From positions 1 through 58,137 of IMG/VR virus record IMGVR_UViG_3300045988_043439: 58,137 nt of DNA; one strand, 5' to 3'. Made by a program: the position numbers and the translations under genes. This DNA is from a virus. Below, one piece after another: positions 3,623-6,806 of this stretch (position 1 is the first letter of the stretch; every line of letters begins with the position of its first letter). The notes beneath the pieces were generated by a model, which worked only from the letters and a program-made list of their open reading frames with translations, had not been told where the DNA came from and did no database searches.

Positions 3623-4264
3623 ATGAAGCCTAATGAAGCCGAAGAAAGGAAACGTATGGAGAACAGCAAAATCCATGAAGCTCTGATGGCTGTTCAGTCA
3701 GAGTTGAAAGCCCCAAAGGGGCAGATGAACACATTTGGCGGTTACAAGTATCGCTCTTGTGAGGACATTTTGGAAGCGGTTAAACCAATTTTGAAAGCAC
3801 ATGGTTTGCTTCTCACCCTTTCAGACGAGCCTAAAGTGTTTGAAGGGTGGCATTACATCGAAGCGACCGCGAAGGTGGAAGCTCTGGATGGTGAATGCGT
3901 AACAGTCACAGCTTACGCAAGAGAGCCGGAGCAAAAAACAAAGATGGACGCAGCGCAAGTGACTGGAACGTCTAGTAGCTACGCCAGAAAGTACGCTTTG
4001 AACGGCCTGTTCTGCATTGACGATACGAAGGACGCTGACACGGACGAGTACCAGAAGCAGACCGCAAGCAGGGCAAACAAGCCTGCGCAGAAGCAAACGG
4101 AAGCGGAAACCATCCCCCCATGCGCTTGCTGTGGAAAGCAGTTGCAGCCTATTCAGTACAACAACCGCACAGTCACTCCGCTGGAAACTGCAAGAAGCAC
4201 AAAGAAACGCTTTGGGCGCGTCCTGTGTTGGGACTGCGCTCAGAAACAGCCGAAGGAGGGCTAA
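3623..4264 (+). CDS. erf: ERF-family single-strand annealing recombinase with a C-terminal zinc ribbon (start may be the ATG at 3656)
   Basis: ALMAVQSELKAPKGQMNTFGGYKYRSCEDILEAVKPIL...VTGTSSSYARKYALNGLFCIDD is an ERF signature; sits upstream of ssb. Confidence 0.8.
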   Translation: MKPNEAEERKRMENSKIHEALMAVQSELKAPKGQMNTFGGYKYRSCEDILEAVKPILKAHGLLLTLSDEPKVFEGWHYIEATAKVEALDGECVTVTAYAREPEQKTKMDAAQVTGTSSSYARKYALNGLFCIDDTKDADTDEYQKQTASRANKPAQKQTEAETIPPCACCGKQLQPIQYNNRTVTPLETARSTKKRFGRVLCWDCAQKQPKEG

Positions 4265-4267
4265 ACA

Positions 4268-4687
4268 ATGCTTAACTCTATCGCAATTCAGGGACGTATG
4301 GTTCACACGCCAGAAGCTAAGGTCACGAAGTCTGGCAAGGATGTTTGTACGTTCAGCATTGCTTGCGACCGCCAGAGCGGCGGTCAGAAGGAAACCGACT
4401 TCTTCAACTGCACCTCATTTGGCAACACGGCATTGTTCGTTTCCAAATGGTTCCAGAAGGGCAGTCTGATTTTGGTGACTGGCAGCATCCAGACCCGGAA
4501 GTATACCGACAAGCAGGGAAACAACCGCACCGCAACGGAAATCATGGCAAACAAGGTTGACTTCTGCGGGGGCAAGTCGGACAGCAAACCCACTGATCGG
4601 GCGCAGGATGCACCGCAGAACTACTCTCAGGGCAACGCAGATGACTTCTCTGTGATTGACGACAGTTCTGATCTCCCTTTTGACTAA
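4268..4687 (+). CDS. ssb: Single-stranded DNA-binding protein
   Basis: OB-fold pattern MLNSIAIQGRMVHTPE...FFNCTSFGNTALFVSKWFQKGSLILVTGSIQTRKYTDKQGNNRTATEI and an acidic tip DDSSDLPF. Confidence 0.9.
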   Translation: MLNSIAIQGRMVHTPEAKVTKSGKDVCTFSIACDRQSGGQKETDFFNCTSFGNTALFVSKWFQKGSLILVTGSIQTRKYTDKQGNNRTATEIMANKVDFCGGKSDSKPTDRAQDAPQNYSQGNADDFSVIDDSSDLPFD

Positions 4688-4726: not shown

Positions 4727-5137
4727 ATGTTTTACCGTCCGAAAGTAGTTCGATGCCGCCTGAAAACTGGCGGGAAAAGCATCGAACAAATCAAAGAATC
4801 TCACAAGGGGCAAGGGCTGGTTTATCGGGATTTCGAAAGTCTCCAACAGATGTACGATGCTTTTTCTGGATTGATTGTTGAACTGTCCCTTTGGGACTAC
4901 GACAACCACGAAAGCTATCATCTCGAAAGCTGGAAGCCAGAAGATGATGAAAAAGTTATGATGGGCGTTTATTACGCAGAGCAAACGCATCCATTCCCTC
5001 GATATAAGAACGATTTTGAAAAGTTCAAAGCAGTTTGGGAAGAAAAGAAATATGAATGCGAAGGCGCATCTCTTGTTTTTGAGCCAGCAGATGTTGAAGA
5101 ACTTGAAACCATCTGCGAAGAAGTTTCTTCGTCCTGA
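4727..5137 (+). CDS. Hypothetical protein
   Basis: 136-aa ORF with RBS GAAAGGAA; no motif recognised. Confidence 0.5.
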   Translation: MFYRPKVVRCRLKTGGKSIEQIKESHKGQGLVYRDFESLQQMYDAFSGLIVELSLWDYDNHESYHLESWKPEDDEKVMMGVYYAEQTHPFPRYKNDFEKFKAVWEEKKYECEGASLVFEPADVEELETICEEVSSS

Positions 5138-5190
5138 CCGCCTACCTTATATAAGAGCTGCGCTATCTGGCTGGACGGGCGTTTGGAAAG

Positions 5191-6591
5191 ATGAAACACT
5201 TGGGCGACATTACAAAGATTCACGGCGACCAGATAGAGCCTGTGGACTGCATCACGTTCGGCAGTCCGTGTCAGGACTTGTCCATTGCTGGACGCAGGGC
5301 GGGACTTGCCGGAGAACGCTCTGGGTTGTTCATGGAAGCGGTTCGAATCATAAAAGAAATGAGGTCAAGCACAAATGGACTGTATCCAACTTTCGCTGTT
5401 TGGGAAAACGTGCCCGGAGCTTTCAGCTCCAATGGTGGAGAAGATTTCAGAGCCGTGCTGGAAGAACTTGCCCGCGTGGAACAGCCAGACGCTTCAATTC
5501 CTAGACCTCCGAGGGGGGGCAGATGGAGCAAAGCTGGAGCAATCGCCGGAAACGGATGGTCTCTGGCTTGGCGACAGCTCGATGCTCAATATTGGGGAGT
5601 TCCCCAACGCCGAAAGAGAATCGCTCTTGTCGTGGATTTTGGAGGACAACGTGCCGCAGAAATACTATTTGAGCGCACGAGCCTGTCAGGGAATCCTTGT
5701 GAGAGCATCCCGGCGTGGAAAACCTTTGCCCGAACTCCTGAAGCAAGCGTTGCTGGATATGATCGAATGGTGGAATCCGGGAACTCTATCACAGGTGATG
5801 CAGAAAGTGAAGGAACAGGAAGGTCTGGAGGAAAAGGAACTGGACGAGTATTGGAATCAGACCATCGAGAGACTTCGACTCGATGCACAGAACCCGCAGC
5901 CTACACTCTAAAAATCCGTTCTGGATGTGAGGGTGGCGGTAAAGGCGCTCTGGTTCAAACTGAATTGAGCGCAACGATTTCTACGTTGCAAGACCAGGCG
6001 TTGTTTCAGCCTGTTGTTTATGATGCTCGTGGAAACGGCGATGGAAAAATCGTACCGACCATTACAGGCGACCACGAAAACAGAATCACAGATTACACGG
6101 CTATTGTAATCGAACGCAAGACCTTCAACGAACAGTCGTTCAGCCACTACAAGGAAAGCGACAAATGCTCAACCTTGAAAGCGAAAGCAGGGAACATCGG
6201 CAATGGCAGCGAGTGCCTGATTGCAGAGAAAGCCATCCGCTGGATTGTTCGCCGCTTGACCCCTGTTGAATGTGAACGGCTACAAGGCTACCCGGACGGA
6301 TACACCGACATTGGTGACTGGACGGATAGCAAAGGAAAGAAGCACAAATACGCTGACAGCCCACGGTACAAGGCTCTAGGCAACTCAATCGCTTTGCCGC
6401 AGTGGTTTTGGTTGGTGCAGAAGATGCGCCCTTACCTAAAAGAAAAGCCTACACTGGGCAGTCTGTTCGATGGTCTGGGTGGTTTCCCTCTGGTCTGGCA
6501 AAGAGCATACGGCGAGGGCACTGCACGCTGGGCAAGCGAAATCGAAAGCTTCTGCGTAGCTGTAACAAAAAGGAGATTCGGCGAAGAATGA
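5191..6591 (+). CDS. DNA (cytosine-5) methyltransferase with non-canonical motif order (motif I/II at the C-terminus)
   Basis: GSPCQDLS (motif IV, 5260-5283), ENVPG (VI), QRRKR (VIII), RRLTPVECERLQGYP (IX), GNSIALP (X), then LFDGLGGF (motif I, about 6463-6486) and ASEIE (II). Confidence 0.85.
   Translation: MKHLGDITKIHGDQIEPVDCITFGSPCQDLSIAGRRAGLAGERSGLFMEAVRIIKEMRSSTNGLYPTFAVWENVPGAFSSNGGEDFRAVLEELARVEQPDASIPRPPRGGRWSKAGAIAGNGWSLAWRQLDAQYWGVPQRRKRIALVVDFGGQRAAEILFERTSLSGNPCESIPAWKTFARTPEASVAGYDRMVESGNSITGDAESEGTGRSGGKGTGRVLESDHRETSTRCTEPAAYTLKIRSGCEGGGKGALVQTELSATISTLQDQALFQPVVYDARGNGDGKIVPTITGDHENRITDYTAIVIERKTFNEQSFSHYKESDKCSTLKAKAGNIGNGSECLIAEKAIRWIVRRLTPVECERLQGYPDGYTDIGDWTDSKGKKHKYADSPRYKALGNSIALPQWFWLVQKMRPYLKEKPTLGSLFDGLGGFPLVWQRAYGEGTARWASEIESFCVAVTKRRFGEE
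5375..5911 (+). CDS. Overprinted 178-codon ORF in the +1 frame inside the methyltransferase gene (expression unproven)
   Basis: Stop-free through MTase motifs VI-VIII; the translation looks protein-like (EFPNAERESLLSWILEDNVPQKYYLSARACQGILVRASRRGKPLPELL). Confidence 0.3.
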   Translation: MDCIQLSLFGKTCPELSAPMVEKISEPCWKNLPAWNSQTLQFLDLRGGADGAKLEQSPETDGLWLGDSSMLNIGEFPNAERESLLSWILEDNVPQKYYLSARACQGILVRASRRGKPLPELLKQALLDMIEWWNPGTLSQVMQKVKEQEGLEEKELDEYWNQTIERLRLDAQNPQPTL

Positions 6592-6806
6592 TTACTTGTT
6601 GTCTCAACTGCACATCACGCCACCAAGCCTGTCACGACACCTGCGAGAAGTACAAGGCAGAGAAGAAAGACTTCGAGGAGCGCAAGGCGTTCGTGCATGA
6701 GCTGAACCACAGCCAGAGCGTGTACCACCGCAACTATGAGGACAAGCACCGAGAAAAAGAAAAGAAACGGTTTCTCGGAAGTGAATTTAGAGGTGAACGA
6801 GGATGA
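6588..6806 (+). CDS. Small Cys-rich protein
   Basis: MITCCLNCTSRHQACHDTCEKYK...; ATGA overlap with the MTase stop. Confidence 0.45.
   Translation: MITCCLNCTSRHQACHDTCEKYKAEKKDFEERKAFVHELNHSQSVYHRNYEDKHREKEKKRFLGSEFRGERG

Follow-up and report, generated by a model that had tools for sequence, protein, structure and literature searches.

An open reading frame (ORF) of 178 codons, which lies wholly inside the gene for a C5 DNA cytosine methyltransferase (MTase) of an uncultured phage, is likely to be a genuine overlapping gene, read from the same strand as its host gene and in its +1 frame. The stretch that we analysed (hereafter the window) comprises positions 1 to 58,137 of the IMG/VR record IMGVR_UViG_3300045988_043439, 58,137 nucleotides (nt) in all. 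The MTase gene occupies 5191..6591 on the + strand and encodes 466 amino acids (aa), and the embedded ORF, which begins with ATG and ends with TAA, occupies 5375..5911 on the same strand, as do all other features of the gene described below. An earlier note on this DNA had offered three readings of the ORF: a dual-coding region, a frameshift isoform of the MTase, or an artefact of frame mis-calls. The first of these is backed by purifying selection in the alternative frame, by a conserved start codon and by the openness of the frame in every intact relative examined.

The embedded frame is open beyond chance expectation

The ORF is found at 5375-5911 in the list of ORFs, with a translation identical to the one quoted in the earlier note, and the two correspondences between frames drawn there, in which the nucleotides for FAVWENVPGAF read in +1 as SLFGKTCPE and those for QYWGVPQRRKR as NIGEFPNAERE, were both verified. 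The alternative frame is bounded on its 5' side by a TGA at 5360-5362, which arises from the conserved MTase codons E-M-R (GAA ATG AGG), and on its 3' side by the TAA at 5909-5911, which is made by the codons CTA-AAA of the conserved MTase sequence YTLKIR. In the start region GAAATGAGG (5356..5377, MTase codons E-M-R), a Shine-Dalgarno-like GAGG at 5361-5364 is followed by 10 nt and then by the ATG at 5375-5377, which comes four codons past the bounding stop.

We compared this region with 80 related phage loci from IMG/VR having 65-98% MTase identity, 76 of which have an intact MTase frame. In all of the intact relatives (76/76) the alternative frame stays free of stops from MTase codon 57 through codon 192 or beyond, and in all of them the ATG is kept, which requires the synonymous codon AAT, and not AAC, in the MTase frame. 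Around the same point, only 22-55 codons of the third frame are open in most of these relatives. The alternative frame was also open in all intact loci of a set from diverse bacterial species (68/68), in most of which an ATG or GTG lies one to seven codons past the bounding stop; these start codons are preceded by A(A/G)GA(A/G)ATGAG, which contains GGAG or GAGG.

Openness was compared with chance by recoding the MTase codons synonymously, with the protein and the codon usage of the gene held fixed (2000 trials). The +1 frame was fully open in 0.6% of the recodings of the window (P(open) = 0.006). Over the 68 diverse loci P(open) had a median of 0.9% when the whole ORF was counted and of 3.9% when only the part upstream of the conserved module described below was counted, and the summed log10 P for this upstream part reached -104 over loci that are not fully independent of one another.

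Selection is handed over between the two frames

Selection was examined on a codon alignment of the 76 intact relatives. Synonymous sites of the MTase frame, whose unusual conservation the earlier note had named as a sign to look for, showed a diversity of 0.14 inside the overlap as compared with 0.28 outside it (p = 2.6e-12, Mann-Whitney), and the lowest value, 0.024, was reached at MTase codons 160-180, although the amino acids vary there. The ratio of nonsynonymous to synonymous substitution rates (dN/dS, NG86) in the MTase frame was 0.13 at codons 1-56, 0.20 at codons 61-107, 0.13 at codons 110-155 and 0.10 at codons 245-465. At codons 156-190 it was 2.10, and the alternative frame gave 0.166 over these same codons. 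Control off-frames, including the third frame, had dN/dS values of 1.2-1.9. The earlier note had pointed to a third-frame ORF at 5016-5504, which is indeed present in the ORF list, and had suspected that part of the signal might be compositional; the third-frame dN/dS values and the short open stretches of this frame in most relatives speak against that suspicion.

The codon position that varies most among the relatives corresponds to the MTase wobble position up to nt ~5650 and then to the wobble position of the alternative frame at ~5653-5761; it has no clear phase in the indel-rich stretch 5770-5900, and follows the MTase wobble position again from ~5900. The MTase frame is under purifying selection over motifs IV-VIII and once more from nt ~5900. 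Over motifs VI-VIII the MTase frame dominates, with a modest extra constraint on the alternative frame, whose dN/dS was 0.75-1.0 instead of 1.5-1.9, and with lowered synonymous rates in the MTase frame. Over nt ~5653-5761, which encode KYYLSARACQGILVRASRRGKPLPELLKQAL, the alternative frame is the one under purifying selection and the MTase frame is an unconstrained linker. The earlier description of the ORF as overprinted on the catalytic core thus holds for its overlap with motifs VI-VIII, but the selected part sits just 3' of motif VIII.

The linker in the MTase frame, as delimited by alignment and dN/dS, comprises codons 162-237 (5674..5901), between EILFE and YTLKIRSGCEGGGKG. It is open and indel-rich, with no amino-acid-level constraint over the module; in the alignment of relatives it is Gly/Ser/Pro-rich and varies in length, many relatives lacking 123 nt here. 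One example of a peptide that the MTase frame encodes in this linker is TSLSGNPCESIPAWK. A separate observation concerns window positions 5449-5590, around a G tract described below, where all three codon positions are unusually invariant in the 76 relatives; dual coding accounts for part of this invariance.

We consider it likely that the ORF is a real, selected, protein-coding overlapping gene. It would be translated from its own ATG at 5375, behind the GAGG built from MTase codons K-E-M-R, and its independent initiation is probable because the frame stays open for ~100 codons 5' of the strongly selected part. Over residues 1 to ~90, selection would mainly keep the +1 reading of motifs VI-VIII free of stops. 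Several points weigh against this reading. The Shine-Dalgarno-like sequence is dictated by the conserved K-E-M-R codons and is not independent evidence; the loci are phylogenetically related, so that the combined probabilities are overstated; selection estimates for overlapping frames confound each other; and no clear alternative-frame selection was found in the window-specific tail of the product (residues ~136-178, segment D).

The embedded ORF recurs across phages and bacteria

The earlier note had likened the product of this ORF to a family of hypothetical proteins from Firmicutes mobile elements. This family is real: 975 proteins match at E <= 1e-3, and the sources that name them say 'hypothetical protein'. 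At the level of clusters at 50% identity, the 178-aa product matches 2896, 846 of them at E <= 1e-10. No Pfam or NCBIfam model matches the product, and a PHROGs search returned only a weak match to phrog_16143, 'DNA methyltransferase'. A match to an Rz-like spanin (E = 0.11) was judged spurious.

Using tblastn, we found the embedded ORF in 124-154 phage records, including Vibrio phage CP-T1, Burkholderia phage Bcep22, Caulobacter and Mycobacterium phages, and Escherichia phages P1 and P7. In phage P1 a 162-codon embedded ORF without annotation lies inside dmt (NC_005856.1, 66713-67201; P(open) = 0.003), and the same embedded ORF is present in the canonical single-ORF MTases of Streptococcus phage Javan422 and Providencia phage PSTRCR_117lys. 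The embedded gene, of about 140-180 codons, is unannotated in all annotated records examined, and no paper describing it was found in searches on overlapping C5-MTase ORFs and phage MTase phase variation, which were not exhaustive.

Bacterial genomes were scanned at one genome per species with a four-sequence alignment of the module as query, and 80 of 189 confirmed places were examined. The module occurred in Oscillospiraceae and other Clostridia, Bacteroidota, Fibrobacteres, Synergistales, Kiritimatiellae and Armatimonadota, and among isolates in Oscillibacter valericigenes Sjm18-20, Clostridium magnum DSM 2767, Intestinibacillus massiliensis and Gemmiger gallinarum. In 78/79 species genomes it lies in the +1 frame of a C5 MTase gene, with motif VIII immediately 5' of it in the -1 frame relative to the module. 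The alternative frame is open for 93-146 codons 5' of the module wherever the contig extends far enough, and for 37-50 codons 3' of it in most of these genomes. The distribution indicates that the embedded arrangement is old and widespread, occurring in Firmicutes, Bacteroidota, Proteobacteria and many phages.

Comparison of 77 diverse loci gave the same picture of selection. Within the module, identity was 75% for the alternative frame, against 39% for the MTase frame and 36% for the third; in the motif VIII zone it was 88% in the MTase frame and 53% in the alternative frame, and the wobble phase switches at the K of KYYLS. These figures bear on the possibility that the frame is open by accident, the gene being GC-balanced, and that the family consists only of frame mis-calls. 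The openness of the third frame nearby (5016-5504) would suit such an account, as would the similarity over the N-terminal two thirds of the family, which is forced by MTase conservation, and the many database members that are fragments or frameshifted alleles. However, the frame would then have to be open by chance at a P(open) of 0.006 in the window and about 0.01 at the median, codon-phase selection falls in the alternative frame, the third frame evolves at the dN/dS given above, and the module is conserved across phyla in the alternative rather than in the MTase frame; we regard this explanation as extremely improbable. The suspicion of mis-calls does apply to the N-terminal ~90 residues and to many frameshifted long members of the family, but not to the family as a whole.

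In 68/79 species genomes no stop interrupts the MTase frame anywhere along the alternative ORF, an arrangement that we call type 1, and at most type 1 loci it runs on for several hundred codons into motif IX. Most of the other 11/79 appear to show a frame change, with the alternative frame running on for 138-332 codons and motif IX found in three. That the frame is open in 68/79, and that most of the other 11 seem to have changed frame rather than acquired stops by substitution, implies that read-through of the MTase frame is selected. This argues against a reading in which the module is part of the MTase polypeptide itself, reached from the MTase frame by one programmed shift, read in +1 for ~45 codons and left by a second shift, so that the linker would be left untranslated. 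Such a double shift would fit the resemblance of the module to an element that follows motif VIII in Dcm, and the type-2 alleles (both described below), in which the module is contiguous with the target recognition domain (TRD) and motifs IX and X. It would, however, demand two recoding events per lineage, with no conserved shift signals at either boundary and no conserved slippery sequence for the return shift at the end of the alternative ORF in ~70 diverse loci, and it leaves the upstream openness of the alternative frame and its conserved start unexplained. We judge it very improbable.

A predicted helical module and its possible link to the enzyme

The conserved module of the embedded protein, delimited by selection, identity and structure prediction, comprises residues ~82-135 (ESLLSWILEDNVPQKYYLSARACQGILVRASRRGKPLPELLKQALLDMIEWW; 5618..5779), with the consensus ES.LS.ILE..VP.KYYLS.KAC.GIL.RA..RGK.LP..L..AL. 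AlphaFold2 (AF2) modelling of the 178-aa product with 43 homologues gave predicted local distance difference test (pLDDT) scores below 60 for residues 1-90 and of 83-94 for residues 91-135, where a short strand or turn at KYY is followed by helices at 101-114 and 120-133; two more helices of moderate confidence were placed in the window-specific tail. The module is thus confidently modelled as a helical hairpin, and residues 1 to ~90 are predicted to be a disordered +1 reading of MTase motifs VI-VIII.

One candidate explanation for part of the conserved sequence, that 'LSQILE' is a mere by-product of the MTase strand LVADF, was ruled out by the subfamily represented by L287, an ENA scaffold (locus ~2030) that carries protein P0201. 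There 25 codons separate EILFE from the module downstream of it, which nevertheless retains KLSWVLE....KYNLS, and the whole module of ~50 residues must therefore be under selection of its own. As further observations on this scaffold, it has another G9 run in codons for CEGGGKG, with the frames changing again downstream, and an Anti-Pycsar Apyc1-like Lactamase_B gene ~750 nt downstream of the MTase.

In the genomes examined, the module never occurs away from an MTase (78/79 with adjoining motif VIII). In type-2 alleles (P0121, P0249 and others) it is directly N-terminal to the TRD and motifs IX and X in the same ORF, and at this position, directly N-terminal to the TRD, canonical enzymes carry a similar element. 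An alignment with hhalign of the family profile to E. coli Dcm placed residues 64-113 of the embedded product on Dcm 290-338, directly after motif VIII (E = 0.055). We propose that the helical module is the functional part of the embedded protein, placed exactly over the MTase linker between motif VIII/EILFE and the TRD, and that it serves the MTase in trans as an accessory or subunit. The element 'L..LL....KY.L(S/T)', which follows motif VIII in frame in canonical enzymes such as Dcm, may be what it supplies; an ancestral in-frame element would have been split off by frameshifts and would now act in trans. We put this model of a displaced ancestral element forward tentatively, as a possible rather than a probable account of function, and a regulatory or unrelated role of the product is also possible.

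Several results count against the proposed function. The likeness to Dcm is weak, resting on a single sequence at the E value given; a Foldseek search of the PDB with the AF2 model gave no match at E <= 0.001; and a sequence-profile search of the PDB found only designed repeat proteins (E ~0.2). An AF2 model of P0121, a natural protein made of the module and the C-terminal half of the MTase, had a mean pLDDT of 52, too poor for contacts between the module and the TRD. Moreover, the MTase ORF holds all ten canonical motifs, and may need no partner.

A G tract inside both ORFs joins and separates the frames

Both ORFs contain a homopolymer of seven G (5513..5519), which encodes part of R108-G109-G110 in the MTase and of R46/G47/G48 in the embedded protein. 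With G7, as in the window, both frames are intact. A tract of G6 or G9 fuses the MTase N-terminus with the tail of the alternative frame, and G8 leads the MTase N-terminus into the third frame and the alternative N-terminus into the MTase body. We took a census of the tract at 120 IMG/VR sites, which were matched by a frame-blind pattern. G7 was found at 73/120 sites, G8 at 15/120, and G9 and G6, the two lengths that fuse the frames as just described, at 2/120 each; at 7/120 sites a G6 on an A-substituted background was in frame, and none of the short or interrupted tracts (~14/120) was out of frame.

Corresponding fusion proteins exist in databases. In P0028 and P0034 (G6) and in P0031 (G9) the MTase N-terminus, MKHLGDITK...ASIPRP..G, is followed by ADGAK...NPQPTL, and fusions of an MTase N-terminus to the alternative tail with a PF00145 match make up 17 of the top 120 protein clusters. 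By MTase gene, the nearest cultured relatives of the window are the Faecalibacterium phages Toutatis (NC_047915; L083, locus ~2137) and Lelie (PP479942; L288, locus ~1637), whose loci are nearly identical but have G9 and G14, respectively. Both lengths are out of frame, and neither reference genome encodes an intact MTase: the annotated gp14 of Toutatis is a fusion of the MTase N-terminus to the alternative frame and gp15 is the C-terminal half, and orf49 of Lelie joins the alternative N-terminus to the MTase body. The joining of frames by changes in tract length explains the fused database proteins.

The locus shares one mark of phase-variable MTases with simple sequence repeats, a homopolymer within the ORF whose length polymorphism shifts the frame among relatives. 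The data fit a hypermutable contingency tract, of which reversibility and adaptive value are hypothetical properties; conservation of the G run may partly follow from the coding of Gly-Gly in both frames.

A second G tract (GATAGGGGGGGCAATTCC) ends the alternative ORF in short-variant relatives (including L029, L035, L079, L082, L168 and L235), which lack 123 nt of the linker and alternative tail in the region equivalent to window ~5770-5900. With G7 at this tract the locus remains of type 1. With G8, G9 or GGTGGGGG the module and the C-terminal half of the MTase share a frame, a 'type 2' state that was found at 7 of about 50 loci. No second G tract is present in the window, which is a long variant.

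These alleles raise the alternative that the module is expressed only as a frameshift isoform, reached from the MTase start by slippage at the G run (through phase variation at the DNA level, slippage in transcription or frameshifting by the ribosome) or by a +1 shift close to EILFE, with a truncated MTase containing motifs III-VI or III-VIII fused to the module as its product. The fused clusters and gp14, the latter in a cultured phage, are what such an account would expect; in addition, an in-phase slippery heptamer, G_GGG_GGC, is present, and the RNA downstream of it in the window folds better than shuffled sequences (z = -2.6). Yet the module is equally conserved where there is no G run, in low-GC and Proteobacterial phages (Javan422, with ...SIPRPTKWTNSG..., and P1), a downstream shift does not require ~100 open codons upstream and a conserved ATG or GTG in nearly all lineages, and the commonest tract variant, G8, enters the third frame and not the module.

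Signals for ribosomal frameshifting fared no better. A hairpin 3' of the G run was considered as a frameshift stimulator and rejected, as the consensus fold across relatives differs and there is essentially no covariation; Rfam gave no match in 5000-6700, and no conserved slippery site was found at the stop of the alternative ORF. For a programmed -1 frameshift, the heptamer is present but covariation is absent, and the third frame is unconserved and ends after ~47 codons. We consider it improbable that a frameshift isoform is all that the ORF represents. As to the isoform proposed in the earlier note, frameshift isoforms do exist at the DNA level in relatives (P0028, P0031, P0034 and gp14 of Toutatis), but the window has G7, and both of its ORFs are intact.

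Under the preferred reading of a separately initiated embedded gene, changes in G-run length in Toutatis-like gut phages would switch the intact pair off or fuse the frames. Where two G tracts flank the module, their combinations could yield the full MTase with a free module, an MTase-N::module fusion, an alternative-N::MTase-C fusion, or a module::C-half fusion, and such a switch would be a phage-borne contingency locus on a dual-coding region. In its broadest form, the proposal would make the embedded protein an obligatory partner of a large clade of phage and mobile-element MTases that includes P1 Dmt, either as a subunit that completes the TRD or as a regulator of methylation, together with a two-tract combinatorial switch in Toutatis-like phages; we think this combination rather unlikely.

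The host methyltransferase is circularly permuted

The 466-aa host protein was assigned to the C5 MTases by its matches to PF00145 (E = 9.5e-33), to TIGR00675 (exceeding its cut-off) and to several 'DNA methyltransferase' PHROGs. It contains the motifs that mark the family: IV (PCQ, codons 26-28), VI (ENV, codons 72-74), VIII (QxRxR, here QRRKR, codons 139-143) and, toward the C-terminus, IX (RRLTPVECERLQG) and X (GNS), with the S-adenosylmethionine (AdoMet) motif I (FxGxG) and motif II coming last. The protein, which begins with MKHLGDITKI..., is thus circularly permuted, with the order III/IV-VIII-TRD-IX-X-I-II. Its C-terminal segment with motifs I/II (TLGSLFDGLGGF...WASEIE; 6451..6588) aligns to the N-terminus of a canonical relative: residues 421-465 of the window MTase align to residues 3-45 of the Javan422 enzyme (E = 1e-5), and residues 1-412 to its residues 46-471. 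The permuted topology was also found in Toutatis, P0135, P0172 and P0213.

A survey of REBASE from 2018 gave as natural permutants of C5 MTases only 'type H', in which the N-terminus lies after motif VIII and before the TRD (PMC5944983). The window MTase resembles the type H enzymes (M.BssHII and others) in being circularly permuted, but unlike them it begins between motifs II and III/IV and finishes with motifs I-II, and so is not of type H. Because the 2018 survey gave only type H (PMC5944983), the topology III/IV-VIII-TRD-IX-X-I-II may not yet have been described.

Comparison with known systems

Small +1-frame genes nested in a larger phage gene are known from Rz1 in Rz of phage lambda, where the nested gene is separately initiated and the two products cooperate. 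The ORF described here would likewise be a short gene contained entirely in a larger phage gene and read in its +1 frame; the proteins and their function are, however, unrelated, and the overlap falls on a conserved enzyme core, not on a lysis gene. Split C5 MTases of the M.AquI type have an alpha chain with motifs I-VIII and a beta chain with motifs IX-X. Type-2 relatives (L081, L082 and about 8-11 of the 79 species genomes) are comparable, having an ORF-A with the motifs up to VIII and an overlapping +1 ORF-B that combines the alternative N-terminus, the module, the TRD and motifs IX and X. In the window and at most loci (type 1), unlike in M.AquI, a single uninterrupted ORF encodes the MTase, and the module is found in a small ORF within it.

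Poly-G contingency loci and phasevarions are known in Campylobacter and Helicobacter. As in these phase-variable MTases, an in-gene G tract whose length differs among close relatives sets the frame; here, in contrast, the tract is phage-borne and lies in a dual-coding stretch, so that two ORFs depend on a single tract, which can exchange their halves.

The nearest model for the embedded product is M.EcoHK31I, a two-polypeptide C5 MTase. Its beta chain is read in another frame from within the alpha gene; activity requires both chains, and the N-terminal part of beta is dispensable (PMC2836561). Both systems have a second polypeptide wholly in an alternative frame of a C5-MTase gene. They differ in that the beta chain carries motif IX, which alpha lacks, whereas no motif is missing from the present MTase ORF and the element in the embedded product is another one, the post-motif-VIII module; we detected no sequence relationship between the embedded product and the M.EcoHK31I beta chain. 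M.EcoHK31I is, in addition, a single enzyme, and the present arrangement is a pan-phylum family of thousands of clusters.

Precedents exist for embedded genes, for MTases with a second chain in another frame and for phase variation of MTases by poly-G. What is new is the cross-phylum breadth of the embedded gene, its presence in model phages, unannotated in the records that we examined, the clean transfer of selection from one frame to the other, and a hypermutable tract in the dual-coding stretch of the Toutatis-like family.

Genomic context and significance

The window represents an uncultured human-gut phage of about 58 kb, and its nearest records are two entries from human faeces named 'Bacteriophage sp.' (MT836154 and MT836051), with ~90% identity over parts of the first 25 kb. 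Upstream of the MTase gene are a 213-aa ORF that ends in a Cys-rich motif (CACCGK...CWDC, noted by sequence; 3623-4264), an ORF that by eye resembles single-stranded DNA-binding protein (4268-4687) and a 136-aa ORF without significant Pfam match (4727-5137). A small Cys-rich ORF (MITCCLNCTSRHQACHDTCEKYK...; ~6590-6806) begins at the MTase stop.

Bacteria and double-stranded DNA phages very rarely carry long overlapping genes that share a strand and are conserved across phyla, and annotation pipelines drop embedded ORFs by design. The candidate described here lies within one of the best-studied enzyme families, and tractable models carry it, among them phage P1 (in dmt), Vibrio phage CP-T1 and Streptococcus prophages. 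If its product is needed for methylation or controls it, 'orphan' phage MTases would have to be understood, and expressed heterologously, in a different way. The embedded gene would then also account for the many such MTase genes that appear 'frameshifted' or split in databases, and would offer a natural case in which the conflict between two frames was resolved by placing a new domain over the linker of an old protein. The polymorphism of the G tract suggests that gut phages vary their methylation state, which would bear on the dynamics of restriction between phage and host.

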